Assembly (NCBI GenBank): GCA_018828585.1
Contig: JAHJVW010000080.1
Location: 10,931-74,930, forward strand
Reading direction: 5' to 3'
DNA length: 64,000 bases
From: Bacteroidota bacterium
Lineage (GTDB): Bacteria; Bacteroidota; Bacteroidia; Sphingobacteriales; Sphingobacteriaceae
Shown here: piece by piece, positions 27,418-46,847 of the stretch
Layout: each line of letters begins with the position of its first letter
Numbering within the stretch: the stretch's first letter is position 1
The notes under the pieces: model-generated
The model's input: the letters and a program-made list of their open reading frames with translations, nothing else
What the model was told of the DNA's origin: nothing
Databases searched by the model: none
Made by a program: the position numbers and the translations under genes

Positions 27418-28875
27418 TTAATTAGGCATATAAGCTTTGAACTTGTTCAATAAAAGTTTATCATAACCGTAAACATCATTAGCAGTAATCAAAGCTCCAT
27501 TGTCATCCGTGAATGCTGTATAATAGGAGATAAAAACAGGTACAGGATTTTGAATCTTCACCCAACGTGAATCAGCTTTCTGACCTCTTGACGCGGCCTC
27601 TGTTTCATTTATAATTTTTTCGGATTCGCTTTTATCATTCAATAAAAACTCTTGCAATTTCATAGGTTGTTCAACCCTAATACATCCATGACTCACTGCT
27701 CTCATATCTTGTTTGAACATTGCTTGAGCAGGCGTGTCATGTAAATAAATTGCATAAGGATTAGTGAAAATGAATTTAATTTGCCCCAACGAATTATCAG
27801 CTCCAGGGTTTTGTTTGAAGGAATACTCATCAATATTGGCATTATTCCAATCCACATTGGACGCTTCAACTAATTCACCATTTTTATAAGCAACCATATT
27901 TTTAGCTTCCAAATAATAAGAATCTTTTTTAAGGCTTGCTAATATCTCTGTTGAGGCGATGCTTTCTGGTATATTCCATACTGGATTTACTTGCATCCTA
28001 TTTACCATTCCACTTAAAATTGGTGTTTCATGCCCTCCGGCTTCACCAACACAAACTTTCATTTTTAACGCTGTAGTGTTATTTTCTATTAGTCTTAATT
28101 GAAATTCAGGAATATTAACCAGAAGGTACTTTCCTTTATATTCCTTAACAGGCCAACGTAATCTTTCCATGGAGAGGTAGATTTTTTGTCTTTCATCAGA
28201 GGTTAATTTCTTTTCTGCCGTTTCATCATTAATTAATAAATTTTGTAAACGTTGATAGTAACCATTTTTGGGCTGTATTTTCTTTAAAAAATTAATCATG
28301 TCTAATGAATCTAAAGTCTTTTCAGCATCAATAAAATTGGGTCTATCTACACTTACATAATAATTAGGTTGAATATTCTTTGGATTTACAGCGCCGTATT
28401 TTAAAATATTTGCATAATTAACTAGTCCATCTGCACTATATAACTCCAATTTTGCTAAAAGCGGATAGCTTTCGCTTACATTTTTAAATTTGGTAAACTT
28501 TAATGAATCCAAAAGAACAGTCATCTTATCCGCATGAAAAAATGAAGAATTGAGCCCATGAAACTTTGCATTTAAAAGATATTGATGTAAAGAATCGATT
28601 TTTCCATCGACTAAAAATTCATCCAATAATATTAACCCGTTATCATCTTGTTGATAAATCTTATCAATCCATTTTGGGTCATGAAGCTCTGGCTTAAGTT
28701 TTTCGAGTTCTTGTTTAAAAACCTCATCATAATCAGAAGCAACAAAATTTTTGTATTGCTTACTCTTGTAAACCTTTGATAATTTTCTACCAAATTCTTC
28801 ATGTCTGCTCTTAGAACAGGACACTATTAAGAAAGAACTTGCAATAAATAGTAGTATAATTTGTTTAATTCGCAT
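27418..28875 (-). CDS. L,D-transpeptidase (YkuD domain, YcbB/LdtD-like scaffold), lipoprotein
   Basis: LIVSC lipobox; VNIPEFQL, NPVWNIP, IYLHDTP...SHGCIRV catalytic H/C. Confidence 0.88.
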   Translation of the reverse strand: MRIKQIILLFIASSFLIVSCSKSRHEEFGRKLSKVYKSKQYKNFVASDYDEVFKQELEKLKPELHDPKWIDKIYQQDDNGLILLDEFLVDGKIDSLHQYLLNAKFHGLNSSFFHADKMTVLLDSLKFTKFKNVSESYPLLAKLELYSADGLVNYANILKYGAVNPKNIQPNYYVSVDRPNFIDAEKTLDSLDMINFLKKIQPKNGYYQRLQNLLINDETAEKKLTSDERQKIYLSMERLRWPVKEYKGKYLLVNIPEFQLRLIENNTTALKMKVCVGEAGGHETPILSGMVNRMQVNPVWNIPESIASTEILASLKKDSYYLEAKNMVAYKNGELVEASNVDWNNANIDEYSFKQNPGADNSLGQIKFIFTNPYAIYLHDTPAQAMFKQDMRAVSHGCIRVEQPMKLQEFLLNDKSESEKIINETEAASRGQKADSRWVKIQNPVPVFISYYTAFTDDNGALITANDVYGYDKLLLNKFKAYMPN

Positions 28876-29018
28876 ACCTTTTAATTTTATTGATTATTAG
28901 GCAAAACTTATACCCTTTTCGGCAAATCATATAGAAGACATAATGTTGGAAGGATTTTTGAAAACCAATTTTAATATTGTAATGTTACGTTAATAAGAAA
29001 ATTATAAATCCAATTATT

Positions 29019-29330
29019 ATGACAATCCAAGTTAATACCGACAATCACATTGAAGGAAAAGAAGAGTTGATCACTTATATATCAAATTTGTACAGTGAAA
29101 AACTGAGCCGTTTTGATGCTCATGTGACGAGAATAGAAATTCATCTAAGCGATGAGAATGCTGGTAAAGCTGGTTCAGATGATAAGAAATGTAATGTTGA
29201 AGCAAGATTAGAGGGACATGATCCAATTTTTGCAAGTGCTCAATCTGACGAAATGAATAAAGCCGTACATGAAGGACTGCATAAAATTAAAAGAGCAATT
29301 GAACACTCACTAGACAGAGCTAAAGCTTAA
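29019..29330 (+). CDS. hpf: HPF/RaiA ribosome hibernation factor (short form)
   Basis: MTIQVNTD...LSRF...ITRIEIHL.DEN...DKKC.VEARL pattern. Confidence 0.85.
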   Translation: MTIQVNTDNHIEGKEELITYISNLYSEKLSRFDAHVTRIEIHLSDENAGKAGSDDKKCNVEARLEGHDPIFASAQSDEMNKAVHEGLHKIKRAIEHSLDRAKA

Positions 29331-29335
29331 AATAA

Positions 29336-29369
29336 ACAGGAGCATTTTTATAAAATTATGCTCCTATTT
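29336..29369 (+). terminator. Terminator after hpf
   Basis: AGGAGCAT / ATGCTCCT stem followed by ATTTTT. Confidence 0.7.
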
Positions 29370-29479
29370 TTACACTGTTAATCCCCCTACTTAATCTTAT
29401 TTAATTAATTAATCAACTATAAACTCTGTCGAGTCTATAGCTTATACCTAATAATGGGTATTTATTCATTAAATAAAAC

Positions 29480-29509
29480 TTGATTATCTCTTTTAGGTTC
29501 TTATATTTG
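29480..29509 (+). promoter_or_regulatory. Bacteroidetes primary-sigma promoter of the his operon
   Basis: TTG (29480-82), 19-nt spacer, TATATTTG (29502-09), matching the -33/-7 consensus. Confidence 0.7.
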
Positions 29510-29547
29510 TCCAACGAAATTTCTCTCCATAGAAATTAAAAAAAGAC

Positions 29548-29610
29548 ATGAAAAGATTATTGACAACTCTACATCATCTACATCATCACCATTGCGGTGA
29601 TGTTATCTAG
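29548..29610 (+). CDS. hisL: His operon leader peptide MKRLLTTLHHLHHHHCGDVI
   Basis: Manual translation; 6 His codons in 7 positions; lies between the promoter and hisG. Confidence 0.85.
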   Translation: MKRLLTTLHHLHHHHCGDVI

Positions 29611-29678
29611 TATTGTTTTGTACGTCAAAACTTTTCAACTCTCAATTGTTTGTCTTTTATTAATAACCCAAAAAAATC

Positions 29679-30530
29679 TTGAAAACTTTAAAAATTGCTA
29701 TCCAGAAATCTGGTAGACTGAATGAAAAATCAGTAGAACTATTAAAAAATTGTGGCTTAAGCTTCGATAATTATAAAAGCTCTTTAATTTCTCCGGTGTC
29801 TAATTTTCCTTTGGAAATTCTCTTTTTAAGAGATGATGATATACCAGAATATGTACAAGACGGCATTGCTGATATTGGTTTAGTAGGTGAAAATGTAATT
29901 GCCGAAACTGGTGTTGAAGTAGCTTATTTACAACGTTTAGGTTTCGGGAAATGTACCTTAAAAATTGCAGTTCCTAATCAAAGTGATTATAAAACAGTTG
30001 CTGATCTAAGAGGTAAATCAATCGCAACTTCCTATCCTGTAATACTTCAAAAATTTTTAGATAAAGAAGGTATTTCTGCAGATATAAAAACCATCTCTGG
30101 TTCTGTTGAAATTGCTCCTGGTTTAGGCCTTGCAGATGCTATTTTTGATATCGTTTCTACCGGTGGGACTTTACGAAGCAATGGCTTAAAGCCTTTTGCT
30201 GATGTGATGGCGTCTGAAGCAATTTTGATTGGCAGAAAAGGTGAAGAAACAAATCCTTTAATTTTAGAATTGCTGCAACGCATTCAATCCGTAATGCGAG
30301 CGAAAGAGACAAAATATGTCGTCTTAAATGTCGAGAAGAAAAATCTCGATAAAATCATCGCTTTATTGCCTGGCGTAAAGAGCCCTTCTGTTGTCAACCT
30401 CGCCGAAGAAGATTGGGTTGCGGTACATACTGTCATTCCAGAGAGAGATTTTTGGAATCATATCAATGAATTAAAAACAGCTGGCGCACAAGGAATTGTG
30501 GTGATGCCGATAGAGAAAATTATATTATAG
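29679..30530 (+). CDS. hisG: ATP phosphoribosyltransferase (long form), TTG start
   Basis: LKIAIQKSGRL, RDDDIP, GSVEIAP.LGLADAI.DIVSTG.TL. Confidence 0.97.
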   Translation: MKTLKIAIQKSGRLNEKSVELLKNCGLSFDNYKSSLISPVSNFPLEILFLRDDDIPEYVQDGIADIGLVGENVIAETGVEVAYLQRLGFGKCTLKIAVPNQSDYKTVADLRGKSIATSYPVILQKFLDKEGISADIKTISGSVEIAPGLGLADAIFDIVSTGGTLRSNGLKPFADVMASEAILIGRKGEETNPLILELLQRIQSVMRAKETKYVVLNVEKKNLDKIIALLPGVKSPSVVNLAEEDWVAVHTVIPERDFWNHINELKTAGAQGIVVMPIEKIIL

Positions 30531-36329: not shown

Positions 36330-36345
36330 TTTGCTAACTTTAAGA

Positions 36346-36588
36346 ATGGAATCTTTAACAATAGAAATTTTAAATCCAAAAGCTAAAAAGCTGTTACAAG
36401 CTTTAGCAGAAATGAATCTCATTTCTATTTCTCAAAATTTTTTAGCTAAAGATGAAGAAGAATGGGATTCATTAACTAAAGAACAAAAAGAAGGAATTTT
36501 TGAGGCAATAAATTCAATTAAGCAAGGCAAAGGAATTCCACATGCTGAAGTCATGTCTAAAATAAAAATGAAATTGTTTAATGGTTGA
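36346..36588 (+). CDS. Type II antitoxin (addiction-module component)
   Basis: Start moved from TTG 36331 to ATG 36346; small protein with acidic WDSLTKEQKEGI.EAI..I..GKGIPH.EV motif; overlaps the downstream toxin. Confidence 0.72.
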   Translation: MESLTIEILNPKAKKLLQALAEMNLISISQNFLAKDEEEWDSLTKEQKEGIFEAINSIKQGKGIPHAEVMSKIKMKLFNG

Positions 36589-36886
36589 TGAGTTAATTTG
36601 GTCACCAGAATCTGAAGAAGATTTCTTAAATATCTTAAACTATCTTATTTCAGATTGGAATGTAAAAATAGCCAGTGATTTTGTTAAGGATATAGAATAT
36701 CACATTGAAAAAATTCATAATAATCCACAATCATACCCCATTATTTATAAACAAGAACAAGTTAGAAAATGCGTTGTAACTAAACACAATAGCTTAGTTT
36801 ATAACTTATTAGATAATAAAATTTTTATTTTAAGAGTCTTTGATACTCGTCAGAATCCTAATAAATTAAAATTCCCAAAACAGTGA
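36581..36886 (+). CDS. RelE/ParE superfamily toxin (ParE-like)
   Basis: IWSPESEEDFLNILNYL N-terminus, NP..YP, VRKCVV...SLVY, ILRVFDTRQNP C-terminus; 101 aa. Confidence 0.82.
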   Translation: MVDELIWSPESEEDFLNILNYLISDWNVKIASDFVKDIEYHIEKIHNNPQSYPIIYKQEQVRKCVVTKHNSLVYNLLDNKIFILRVFDTRQNPNKLKFPKQ

Positions 36887-37470
36887 ATATAAATTTTACA
36901 AAAAGCGACGGATTAGTGCCTGTTATTATTCAGGATGAACAAACTTTAGAAGTGTTAATGTTAGGCTATATGAATGAAGAAGCTTTTCAAAAAACAGAAA
37001 AAGAAGGGAAAGTGACCTTTTTCTCTCGTACCAAAAACCGTTTATGGACCAAAGGTGAAGAAAGTGGAAATTACTTAAATGTAAAGTCTATCAACTTAGA
37101 TTGCGACCAAGATACTTTATTGATTAAGGTAAATCCAGTTGGACCAACTTGCCACACAGGTTCTCGAAGTTGCTTTTCAACAGATTACAATCAAAACTTC
37201 ATATTTCAGCTGGAAAATATCATCAAAGATAGATACGAAAATCCCACGGCAGAATCTTATATCAATAAACTAAGAGCTAAAGGACTAAACAAAATTGCTC
37301 AGAAAGTGGGCGAAGAAGGTGTAGAAACGGTGATTGCAGCTCTGGCAGAAACTGAAATTGATTTAATTAACGAATCATCTGATTTAGTCTTCCACCTACT
37401 GGTTCTGTTAAAAGAAAAAGGTTTGAATTTGAACGATATTGCAAAGAATTTAGAAAGTAGACATCAATAA
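36883..37470 (+). CDS. hisIE: Bifunctional phosphoribosyl-AMP cyclohydrolase / phosphoribosyl-ATP pyrophosphatase
   Basis: GLVPVIIQD, LWTKGEESG, DCDQDTLL, PTCHTG..SCF, KVGEEGVE. Confidence 0.96.
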   Translation: MNINFTKSDGLVPVIIQDEQTLEVLMLGYMNEEAFQKTEKEGKVTFFSRTKNRLWTKGEESGNYLNVKSINLDCDQDTLLIKVNPVGPTCHTGSRSCFSTDYNQNFIFQLENIIKDRYENPTAESYINKLRAKGLNKIAQKVGEEGVETVIAALAETEIDLINESSDLVFHLLVLLKEKGLNLNDIAKNLESRHQ

Positions 37471-44627: not shown

Positions 44628-46847
44628 TTACTTCGCAGCTGCCATTAGATAATCGGCCAACTTATTGATCGCTGTTGACAAAGTACCTATTTGTGCTTGC
44701 GCCTCCTTATAATTTCTTTGTTCAATTGCTTCTCGAACTCCTGGTAAAGTTTTCACACCATAGCCAGTATAAAATCCAGGAGCATAAATAGCGTGAACAT
44801 ACCAAGGTCTACGTGGCAAACCTTCGGGCATTAACAACTGTTGCTCTGCTTGATATAGTTTCTTATTAAAATTATTTGCGTCTTCTTTACTTTGCGCTAG
44901 TTTTGTCCATTTAATAGCCAATGAATCGCTACTCATTTCTAAGGCATGCAACGCATTTTGTAAAAGTGAAAAATCCAGATACGGAACTTCAGCTTTTGCA
45001 TCTGGAACAATAAATGTTTTTGTTGGGTCTTCTGCTAATTTATATTGACCTGTTTTAATCAATCGATTTTCTACCTCAGTGCTTTCCCGCATCTGGTCCA
45101 TATTCGTCATCACTTCTGTTGCATAAGTATTAATGTTTTTATACAGATTCCTAAAATCAAACGGTAAAACATCAGATTCTGATAAACGAAGCACCACTCT
45201 TCCTGCGGTTTGGGCTAATGCTAAACCATATTCAAATTTCGGATCTTTAAATCTTCTATAATCATCAAAAGAGTCATAAATAGAATGATATTCACCTCCA
45301 TCATCCTCACCACTAAAACCAATATTTAGAGACGGCACACCTAAATGTTGTAAAAAGCTAGAATAGTCAGACCCTGAACCTAGCGCACTTAATTTCAAAC
45401 TCTTTGTGTCTAATGCTTCCTGTTTCTGTTTACTGCTTTTCGCAGCTATTGCTCTCGCCGCATTTCTGCGTTCAAAAACGCTGACATTAGTTTGTGGATC
45501 AATCACAGTCTTTGAAATTTCGTCCATTAAAGGCTCTAACGCTTGGGAACCTCCGGCTTCTAAAAATCCGCGTCCGTTACCATCAGAATTAATATAAGCT
45601 ACTGCTTTCTGCTGTAATTCTTTTGCATGGTCTTCTACCCATTCTGTAGAGCCTATCAATCCAGGTTCTTCCCCATCCCAAGCACAATAAACGATGGTTC
45701 TTTTAGGCTTCCAACCCATTTTTAATAGATCGCCAATCGCTTTAGCTTCATCCAACATCGCGGCTTGTCCACTAATAGGATCATTGGCCCCATTTACCCA
45801 AGCATCATGATGATTTCCTCTTAATACCCATTGGTCAGGATATACGGAGCCTTTAATTGTAGCAATTACATCATAGCAAGGAACTTGTTTCCAATCAAAC
45901 TCTAATTTCAAATGGACCTTAGTTTTACCAGGCCCTACATGATAAGTAAATGGCAATGCTCCAGCCCAACCAGAAGGCGCTACTGGTCCTTCCATAGCTT
46001 GCAGCAGTGGTTGTGCATCGTGATAACTGATAGGCATCACGGGTATTTTTAAGATGGTAGTTGCATCTTTCTTATCCAATCTTTTCGCTGATGCGGTTGA
46101 ACCAATATTTGGAGTAAGTGGATCACCTGGATGAATGACCATATCCATAACCGAGCCTCTTTGAGCACCATATTCATTTTTAAATGCTCCTTTCGGATAA
46201 ACATCTCCTTGAAAATAGCCATCATCCATCGGATCAGAATAAATCAGACAACCGATGGCGCCATGTTCATAAGCAACTTTTGGTTTTATACCACGCCATG
46301 AATGTCCGTATTTGGCAATCACAATTTTTCCTTTTACATCAATACCTAATTTAGCAAGTTCGTCATAATCTTCAGGCAAGCCATAATTTACAAAAACTAA
46401 CTCTGCTGTTACGTCTCCATCACCACTCCATGCATTATATATGGGTAATTGTCCTGCTTGTCCAGAAGTTGCATCTTCAGAAAGAGCGAATTCTTTCAGT
46501 AATAGCTTAATACCACTTGGAGATACCGCTTCTAAAACACGTGTTTTAGGGGTTGGGAAAAGAACCTGATAAGTTTCAATTTTAGTATCAAAACCATAGC
46601 TTGTAAATTTTTTCGCGATGGCTTCAGCAACTATTTTACTACCAGACGAGCCTAAACTATGTGGAATAGCAGAAAGTTCTTTAATAGTTTCTCCAATTCG
46701 GATAGCGCTCATTGATGCGTCAAACTTTTGCTCAGTCTGAATTTGCTTGTTCACATCTGGAGATCGGAAACCGATAATGGACTTTTGCTGAGAAAAACCA
46801 GATTGTACAAAGAACAACGTGGCTGCAAGAAGTAAATATTTTTTCAT
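44628..46847 (-). CDS. M28 family peptidase, glutamate carboxypeptidase II-like (PA and TfR-dimerisation domains)
   Basis: Start moved to MKKYLLL (signal peptide); GNHHDAW, GANDPISG, WDGEEPG, YHSIYD. Confidence 0.88.
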   Translation of the reverse strand: MKKYLLLAATLFFVQSGFSQQKSIIGFRSPDVNKQIQTEQKFDASMSAIRIGETIKELSAIPHSLGSSGSKIVAEAIAKKFTSYGFDTKIETYQVLFPTPKTRVLEAVSPSGIKLLLKEFALSEDATSGQAGQLPIYNAWSGDGDVTAELVFVNYGLPEDYDELAKLGIDVKGKIVIAKYGHSWRGIKPKVAYEHGAIGCLIYSDPMDDGYFQGDVYPKGAFKNEYGAQRGSVMDMVIHPGDPLTPNIGSTASAKRLDKKDATTILKIPVMPISYHDAQPLLQAMEGPVAPSGWAGALPFTYHVGPGKTKVHLKLEFDWKQVPCYDVIATIKGSVYPDQWVLRGNHHDAWVNGANDPISGQAAMLDEAKAIGDLLKMGWKPKRTIVYCAWDGEEPGLIGSTEWVEDHAKELQQKAVAYINSDGNGRGFLEAGGSQALEPLMDEISKTVIDPQTNVSVFERRNAARAIAAKSSKQKQEALDTKSLKLSALGSGSDYSSFLQHLGVPSLNIGFSGEDDGGEYHSIYDSFDDYRRFKDPKFEYGLALAQTAGRVVLRLSESDVLPFDFRNLYKNINTYATEVMTNMDQMRESTEVENRLIKTGQYKLAEDPTKTFIVPDAKAEVPYLDFSLLQNALHALEMSSDSLAIKWTKLAQSKEDANNFNKKLYQAEQQLLMPEGLPRRPWYVHAIYAPGFYTGYGVKTLPGVREAIEQRNYKEAQAQIGTLSTAINKLADYLMAAAK

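Follow-up and report, generated by a model that had tools for sequence, protein, structure and literature searches.

A histidine-rich leader ORF and a co-evolving long-range RNA helix precede hisG in Sphingobacteriaceae

Introduction

Leader-peptide attenuation is a textbook mechanism that has been worked out nearly entirely in Proteobacteria, Firmicutes and Actinobacteria. Can a histidine biosynthesis (his) operon of the Bacteroidota be governed by the same logic, and through which RNA structures? The question is raised by a 64,000-nt stretch of contig JAHJVW010000080.1 (hereafter the window) from a Pelobium-like member of the Sphingobacteriaceae, in which a short His-rich open reading frame (ORF) stands directly before hisG. 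No description of a Bacteroidota his leader was found in Rfam or the searchable literature; a 2004 study by Vitreschak et al. is said to mention Bacteroidetes/Chlorobi attenuators in its abstract. Our analysis indicates that the leader is very probably a ribosome-mediated histidine sensor coupled to a nested RNA switch, of the hisL type, for the his operon of this organism.

Results

A His-rich leader ORF is conserved upstream of hisG

The leader ORF begins with ATG and contains 20 codons, and six of the seven codons in the run CAT CAT CTA CAT CAT CAC CAT (29572–29592) encode histidine. Its stop codon is separated by 68 nt from the TTG start of a downstream ORF, which was identified as hisG by a match to TIGR00070 (2e-57). 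hisG is the first gene of an operon with the order hisG, hisD, hisC, hisB, hisH, hisA, hisF and hisIE, ending at 37470. The promoter, leader ORF, 68-nt spacing, hairpin and complementarity listed in the original prediction, which had been made from the DNA letters alone, were all found where it had placed them. In Markov simulations, stretches with at least five His in seven codons are expected 0.02 times per 64 kb, which makes chance an unlikely explanation for the cluster. The sole other such stretch in the window, HLHHPHH at 45293–45313 on the plus strand, lies out of frame and antisense within a 746-aa minus-strand ORF, belongs to no ORF and was treated as a chance occurrence.

A genome scan for HisG provided 80 related loci with 75–96% HisG identity, all from Sphingobacteriaceae and covering Pelobium (96%), Pedobacter, Mucilaginibacter, Daejeonella, Parapedobacter, Pseudopedobacter and Paradesertivirga; the conservation described here refers to Sphingobacteriaceae whose HisG is at least 75% identical. 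A His-rich ATG-start ORF of 14–21 codons, with at least three His in eight codons, occupies the same position in 77 of the 80 loci, always directly upstream of hisG. The three exceptions are one truncated contig and two loci whose ORF has only two His. The first His pair sits at codon 7–9 and the pattern HHxHxHH(H/R)H is retained, with variable N- and C-termini. The distance from the leader stop to hisG is 53–82 nt, three Parapedobacter species excepted. Among 71 loci, hisG starts with TTG in 34, GTG in 32 and ATG in 5, that is, with a non-ATG codon in 66. The leader element is thus conserved over at least seven Sphingobacteriaceae genera, with clear covariation, and the His-rich leader ORF that had been proposed upstream of hisG is real.

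Several members deviate from the common form. Three Sphingobacteriales/Sphingobacteriaceae metagenome-assembled genomes (MAGs; L016, L025 and L018) retain the ORF with His down to 2–3 codons, and two of them (L016 and L025) also retain a long-range pairing of GGUAAAAGRC with GUCUUUUACC; these leaders may be relaxed or re-purposed versions. In three Pelobium/Sphingobacteriales MAGs (L003–L005) the ORF has only 14 codons and its stop lies in the loop of the P1 hairpin described below, about 20 nt before the H2 hairpin.

The leader RNA is predicted to form co-evolving hairpins and a long-range rod

The 186-nt leader folds better than all of 200 shuffled versions (z = −3.4). From a 65-sequence MAFFT alignment, RNAalifold retrieved H2 alone and mis-registered the other stems; its result was replaced by clade alignments, hand-defined structures and a test of cognate against non-cognate duplexes. 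All structures are predictions backed by covariation, and their positions in the window are collected in Table 1.

P1 pairs the last His codons with the following Cys/Gly/Asp codons and has a median stability of −9.5 kcal/mol over 71 loci. Its fifth pair (5:17) is G-C in 27 sequences and A-U in 26, never mixed, and the His codon CAC becomes the Arg codon CGC only alongside a change of GGUG to GGCG (GGUGAU to GGCGAU) on the other strand. The C-terminal residues of the leader differ among relatives (CGDVI, VVIR, RFAAM, QLWR) exactly in line with P1 complementarity, indicating that the C-terminus of the peptide is set by the RNA and not by the protein. H2 has a stability of −1.8 to −3 kcal/mol across relatives and starts 2–14 nt (mode 5) past the stop. 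Its sequence is almost invariant, the UACG loop being kept in at least 90% of sequences; it is 96% paired, and three of its pairs are altered on both sides. For P1 and H2 together, 89.2% of cells are paired over 55 distinct sequences as compared with 33–60% in slid controls, over which the hand-defined structures are somewhat favoured since they come from member sequences. The covariation score of the two hairpins is 0.256 versus at most 0.111 in the controls, and none of 500 shuffles reaches the observed value. A third hairpin, P5, at the 5' terminus, has 83.5% paired cells in the Mucilaginibacter clade and 53–67% in the clade of the window. In other clades the P5 3' half is able to pair instead with the end of the rod 3' arm.

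The largest structure is a rod that encloses the whole leader ORF. In its outermost helix (P0a), the A-rich region 5' of the leader ATG pairs with UGUCUUUUAUUAAU. In P0b, UGAAAAG, comprising the last two bases of the start codon and codons 2–3, pairs with CUUUUCA; in P0c, UUGAC of codons 5–6, an 'anti-H2' strand, pairs with GUCAA. The rod is present in all 22 representative minimum free energy folds, where it joins the 5' untranslated region (UTR), the AUG and the first codons to RNA past the stop. Its 3' strand stops 15 nt before the hisG start in the window, and the median end position over 71 loci is −15 (interquartile range −18 to −7.5). The short complementarity between AAAAGACA (29541–48) and TGTCTTTT (29651–58) that had been pointed out at the outset is real and forms the base of a much longer co-evolving helix.

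Cognate rod arms pair at −15.6 kcal/mol as compared with −9.6 kcal/mol for non-cognate arms from dissimilar loci (p = 2e-11). The cognate value for the window is −18.8 against −7.7 ± 3.1 kcal/mol, and none of 55 non-cognate pairs equals it. Paired rod cells amount to 73.8% in the window clade (37–50% in slid controls) and 87.6% in the Mucilaginibacter clade (25–52%), and P0c covaries between GAC/GUC and GAA/UUC. P1, H2 and the rod thus all covary in the Sphingobacteriaceae alignments that the original prediction had proposed as a check; it had counted lack of conservation in relatives against itself, and the ORF, both hairpins and the complementarity recur.

H2 and the closed rod are mutually exclusive

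The 3' half of H2 (29626–31) overlaps the 3' strands of P0c and P0b, and because nucleotides 29624–31 are shared, formation of H2 rules out the inner rod and vice versa. Covariation links this half of H2 to each of the two strands that it can pair with (UUGAC/GUCAA, UUUUGAA/UUCAAAA, UUUUCAC/GUGAAA and UCGC/GCGA), and the alternative fold composed of P5, H2 and P1, conserved to the same degree as the rod, is 90.8% paired in the Mucilaginibacter clade. The modelling strongly supports a leader RNA that folds in two mutually exclusive ways. In the predicted closed form, the leader initiation region, the AUG and codons 1–6 are paired with the RNA from the H2 3' half to position −15 of hisG, with P1 at the tip of the rod. 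In the predicted open form, the U-rich 3' arm is unpaired and H2 folds as a local hairpin.

Unpaired probabilities were computed for both initiation regions. That of the leader is 0.61 unpaired in nascent RNA that lacks the 3' arm and 0.30 in the full leader (0.57 to 0.21 in the window). The hisG −35 to −16 region is 0.40 unpaired in free RNA and 0.59 with the 5' part of the leader occupied; in the window clade it is hardly altered by one ribosome at the first His codon. When one stalled ribosome is modelled by thermodynamic masking, the rod base opens only in part, from 0.60 to 0.36 in the Mucilaginibacter clade, from 0.69 to 0.54 in the Daejeonella-type clade and from 0.52 to 0.50 in the window clade; a stalled and a trailing ribosome together clearly open it. 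The hisG −15 to +12 segment is 0.88 unpaired in the window and 0.67 on average.

Terminators, antiterminators and start-codon pairing

As had been proposed, no classical attenuator with a GC hairpin and a U-tract is present. The intrinsic terminator scan returned 0 sites, and the only structure flagged by our own scan was P1, whose tail is U-poor, in 11 of 72 loci. P1 was rejected as a terminator for that tail and since it would be disrupted in both ribosome states. The weak AT hairpin that had been noted is real and conserved, being H2, and the TTTT run (29632–35) lies directly behind it; the reading of this run as a terminator tail did not hold up. At −2.9 kcal/mol H2 is too weak, the run is part of the P0b 3' strand that pairs with UGAAAAG at the leader start, and a T-run behind H2 occurs in the window clade only, being missing from most relatives, including the Mucilaginibacter and Daejeonella clades. 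Such a terminator would also act under starvation. A classical 2:3 antiterminator, formed by the P1 3' strand with the rod 3' arm, was rejected as well, the cognate pairing being significantly worse than the non-cognate one.

No conserved pairing of the hisG start with the 5' UTR, the leader ORF or the 3' arm was found outside Parapedobacter, and a pairing between the hisG start and H2 was marginal (−0.7 kcal/mol, p = 0.03) and is not trusted. In three Parapedobacter members (L050, L068 and L072) the hisG start codon is ATG, and it pairs with UUCAUG or UUCGUG at the 5' end of the transcript. L050 is free of insertions; in L068 and L072 this pairing bridges an insertion of 85–95 nt. The insertion is found in L042, L068 and L072, where it lies between the rod 3' arm and hisG and folds into its own hairpin.

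Searches of Rfam over 28800–30200 gave no real match to RF00514 or any other family even at E ≤ 10, and no family reached its gathering score in a scan of the whole window. Nor was there an Rfam T-box match in the window of the kind that a leader with a specifier loop and T-box sequence would give.

Promoter, transcript 5' end and neighbouring genes

The leader is preceded by a Bacteroidota-type promoter (Table 1), from which transcription is predicted to start at about 29514–16. The distance from the −7 element to the start is 4–5 nt in F. johnsoniae (PMC6847099). A TAnnTTTG motif is found 20–56 nt 5' of the leader ATG in 71 of 72 non-redundant relatives and is almost invariant in their alignment. 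The organism of the window has been seen solely in DNA metagenomes. At the Mucilaginibacter rubeus locus (L014:2340), a metatranscriptome contig (run X21, depth 81) starts 5 nt past TATATTTG, which is the predicted start, and extends through the leader into hisG. Leader contigs at this locus are 3–10 times deeper than hisG-body contigs, a difference that is not decisive with species pooled. Depths of the Mucilaginibacter and Pedobacter metatranscriptome contigs are flat or pooled and cannot reveal RNA 3' ends.

Directly upstream, at 29019–29372, lies a gene for an HPF/YfiA-like ribosome hibernation factor (TIGR00741, under the family cut-off). An ordinary terminator comes next, AGGAGCAU...AUGCUCCU and then AUUUUU, which shows that classical terminators are in use in this organism. 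Within the his operon, TTG also serves as the start of hisH and hisF, and GTG as that of hisIE. Two short ORFs, of 85 aa and 101 aa, overlap each other at 36331–36886 between hisF and hisIE. The second, 101-aa ORF matches the ParE toxin family (PF05016, 4.7e-09), and judging from their sequences the two look like a type II toxin-antitoxin pair inside a biosynthetic operon.

Table 1. Positions of the predicted leader elements in the window and the basis of each assignment.
Feature	Position	Strand	Details
Bacteroidota-type promoter	29480..29509	+	TTG (−33 element) 29480–82, 19-nt spacer, TATATTTG (−7 element) 29502–09
P5, 5'-terminal hairpin	29518..29537	+	AAUUUCU (29518–24) with AGAAAUU (29531–37); predicted folds
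Rod 5' strand	29535..29564	+	P0a 29535–48, P0b 29549–55, P0c 29560–64; folds, arm pairing, covariation
Leader ORF, hisL-like	29548..29610	+	MKRLLTTLHHLHHHHCGDVI; His codons 29572–77 and 29581–92; stop TAG 29608–10
P1 hairpin	29584..29602	+	CAUCACC-AUUGC-GGUGAUG, 29584–90 with 29596–602; −9.0 kcal/mol
H2 hairpin	29615..29631	+	GUUUUG-UACGU-CAAAAC; −2.9 kcal/mol; begins 5 nt after the stop codon
Rod 3' strand	29624..29664	+	P0c 29624–28, P0b 29631–37, 13-nt pyrimidine-rich bulge 29638–50, P0a 29651–64
hisG translation-initiation region and hisG	29665..30530	+	A-rich, predicted open; TTG start 29679; profile match, unpaired probability

Discussion

A probable nested switch driven by the position of the leader ribosome

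The histidine sensor would be built as a nested switch and not as sequential 1:2/3:4 hairpins. We propose that the leader start would be free only before the 3' arm is transcribed, so that a pioneer ribosome would load co-transcriptionally. With His-tRNA scarce, this ribosome would stall at the first His codons (codon 7–9), and the rod 5' strand would be covered by its footprint or by another ribosome held up behind it, allowing H2 to form and leaving the rod open. With His-tRNA ample, the ribosome would reach the stop 5 nt before H2 and depart; the rod would then close and shut off further leader translation. Going by standard footprint sizes, a ribosome whose A site holds the first His codon would cover codons of the rod 5' strand, and one at the stop codon would reach the 5' strand of H2. 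This footprint geometry suggests that the choice of fold depends on ribosome position. In L003–L005 the early stop means that the rule of a terminating ribosome reaching H2 is not valid for every member.

How the fold would be converted into his expression is less certain. The output that we favour, tentatively and with somewhat less than even confidence, is translational: the closed rod would mask the U-rich single-stranded stretch at −16 to −35 upstream of the weak TTG start of hisG, which has no Shine-Dalgarno sequence. hisG initiation would drop, the untranslated operon RNA would then be lost via polarity or decay, and the open form would restore initiation. The translational switching put forward in the original prediction thus stands as one of the two best readings of the output. 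It is supported by the position of the rod, whose 3' end abuts the hisG initiation region such that the closed form hides −16 to −35. Also in its favour are the non-ATG start of hisG in 66 of 71 loci and the Parapedobacter cases in which an ATG start goes together with pairing to the transcript 5' end. In Bacteroidota, initiation needs low structure from −20 to +20 and A-rich upstream positions, not a Shine-Dalgarno sequence, and these positions are possibly read by bS1 (PMC6847099). Several points weigh against such an output. The hisG start and its −15 to +12 surroundings are predicted to be open in both states, and across the relatives' loci the hisG initiation region has no conserved pairing, Parapedobacter excepted, so inhibition is assumed to rest on adjacency or on loss of a landing site of the protein S1 type. 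A single ribosome opens the rod base only partially, and steric effects or a trailing ribosome must therefore be invoked. Masking one initiation region does not alone regulate eight genes. Finally, the pause-like conserved P1 and the one-shot translation of the leader are more typical of transcriptional attenuators.

Alternative readings

The last two points lead to the principal alternative, in which the sensor and switch are the same and the closed rod is itself a long-range intrinsic terminator. The leader start-codon region would be its upstream strand, and the U-rich tract about 25–35 nt before hisG would follow or lie in its downstream strand; stalled ribosomes would mask the upstream strand and permit read-through, giving classical transcription attenuation with a nested terminator. 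A plausible geometry exists in the Mucilaginibacter clade, where AUGAACGG forms a helix with CCGUUUAU and (AUUC)UUUUUUAU comes next, and in Daejeonella L007 U8 follows the rod, with five U bulged and unneeded for pairing. Of the 8 nt that precede the most U-rich segment, at least half are paired in 40 of 61 loci, mostly with the start-codon region. P1 resembles the pause hairpin of a classical attenuator, synthesis of the 3' arm closes the leader initiation region so that sensing is one-shot and co-transcriptional, and operon-wide control of eight genes needs a transcriptional effect. The 85–95 nt insertion tolerated in Parapedobacter and the lack of conserved pairing at the hisG initiation region also fit a terminator. 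In the window, however, merely 4 bp (GACA/UGUC) beside the 13-nt bulge adjoin the U-tract, the classical scans gave nothing or only the U-poor P1 of 11 of 72 loci, and the U-richness is already accounted for by complementarity to the A-rich leader start. We know of no precedent for a terminator with strands about 100 nt apart, which counts against this alternative as well. Overall, we consider the long-range terminator doubtful, yet close behind the translational output in likelihood.

With the same switch, the output could also be RNA processing or stability: a double-strand-specific RNase would cut the closed rod, or rod closing would unfold P5 and expose the 5' end, so that the his mRNA decays when histidine is plentiful. 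Such an output seems improbable. Rods are long and almost continuous in several clades (−42 kcal/mol in L035, for example), and the 3' arm ends, in the Mucilaginibacter and Daejeonella-type clades, with a repeat of the P5 5' half, making rod and P5 exclusive; in the window clade, however, rod and P5 overlap by only 3 nt and the helices are short and bulge-interrupted. The Rho-dependent attenuation of the original prediction, in which Rho would bind a C-rich, G-poor rut site between the leader and hisG except when a stalled ribosome keeps it off, fares still worse and is very improbable. The spacer consists mainly of T and A and is indeed G-poor (5 of 68 nt), and a pyrimidine-rich bulge of 11–13 nt is single-stranded within the rod, but C accounts for only 12 of 68 nt (18%), equal to the window average, and the spacer is a mere 68 nt long and about half base-paired. 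Stall sites lie more than 30 nt upstream of it. The stretch would be exposed with a stalled ribosome and hidden after its departure, so direct Rho loading there would shut the operon down in starved cells, opposite to what histidine biosynthesis calls for. Rho polarity may nevertheless act secondarily inside untranslated hisG. That the ORF instead encodes a functional micropeptide, such as a metal binder, or arose by chance with no regulatory role is scarcely credible. Peptides rich in His are able to bind Ni or Zn, and the one encoded here is short, but the ORF always lies directly upstream of hisG, only 0.02 such clusters are expected per window, and what is conserved is only the His codons and the RNA pairing. 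The C-terminus follows P1, and Arg replaces a His codon wherever the P1 partner base changes.

Comparison with known systems

The leader shares with attenuators of the leader-peptide class an ORF of cognate codons before the operon, conservation of these codons and exclusive folds; it has no classical intrinsic terminator. It resembles enterobacterial hisL (His_leader, RF00514), where a short ORF with a His run also stands directly before hisG, the last His codons lie in the 5' strand of a hairpin (compare A:B) and a ribosome stalled for want of His-tRNA selects the 'on' fold. In contrast to hisL, the leader of the window lacks a sequential C:D/E:F terminator, a GC-rich hairpin with U-tract and a 2:3-type antiterminator; its regulated helix encloses the whole ORF and uses the leader start region as one strand. 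In E. coli trp, the leader ribosome-binding site (RBS) pairs with a distal leader segment, which shuts off leader translation as an accessory to the normal 3:4 terminator. The his leader likewise sequesters its initiation region once distal RNA is made, but here such pairing is the main conserved long-range structure. In pyrBI the ribosome directly blocks a terminator strand; similarly, the ribosome itself and not an antiterminator hairpin would keep the regulated helix open in the his leader.

Translational attenuation of the ermC/cat type resembles the favoured reading in that a stalled leader ribosome refolds the RNA and frees a downstream initiation region with no need of a terminator. The same likeness holds for the 'sequestor' attenuators predicted in Actinobacteria (PMC1262725; mentioned in PMC9413887). 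The erm/cat systems pair the start codon or RBS in the off state. In the window, the hisG start codon is unpaired, the −15 to +12 segment is open with no co-evolving partner and only the U-rich −16 to −35 stretch is paired; pairing of the start codon itself is confined to Parapedobacter L050, L068 and L072. Moreover, the signal would be a shortage of charged tRNA and not a drug, in a phylum with no Shine-Dalgarno sequence to sequester. Rho leaders of the tna and mgtA type carry an unstructured rut site, rich in C and poor in G, that lies exposed when expression is off, whereas here C is at the 18% background and the region is paired when histidine is replete and exposed when the ribosome stalls. 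In phage MS2, the long-distance (Min Jou) interaction joins the first codons of one ORF to the region before the start of the next, and ribosomes on the upstream ORF open the pairing. The rod has the same layout, early upstream codons being paired at a distance with a pre-start region that ribosomes would open; any translation of the coat gene opens the MS2 pairing, whereas stalling at His codons in a 20-codon leader would be needed here. Within the same phylum, the Bacteroid-trp motif (RF01692) is a predicted cis-regulatory leader (Weinberg 2010, PMC2864571). It too precedes an amino-acid biosynthesis operon and is predicted to exert leader-type control, but it concerns another amino acid and another RNA. 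Bacteroid-trp has an ordinary terminator hairpin.

Implications

The His-sensing logic of a leader peptide is known; what looks new is a long-range helix architecture in place of the classical terminator. The element lacks the defining parts of the classical device, namely terminator, antiterminator and start-site sequestration. It is conceivable, if doubtful, that a helix of about 100 nt is kept open by a ribosome stalled early in a mini-ORF, with neither terminator nor start-codon sequestration, and that this constitutes a class of sensor of a phylum that does without Shine-Dalgarno sequences. The strands of such a helix would, with the same reserve, be the initiation region of the mini-ORF itself and the U-rich landing region of the downstream gene. 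If so, a single stalled ribosome would permit repeated initiation at a weak start codon, TTG or GTG. Standard annotation pipelines miss both the leader ORF and its RNA, and their recognition would be a gain for annotation. Pedobacter and Mucilaginibacter are culturable, which makes the system tractable, and it could show how ribosome position becomes gene expression where ribosomes ignore Shine-Dalgarno sequences.

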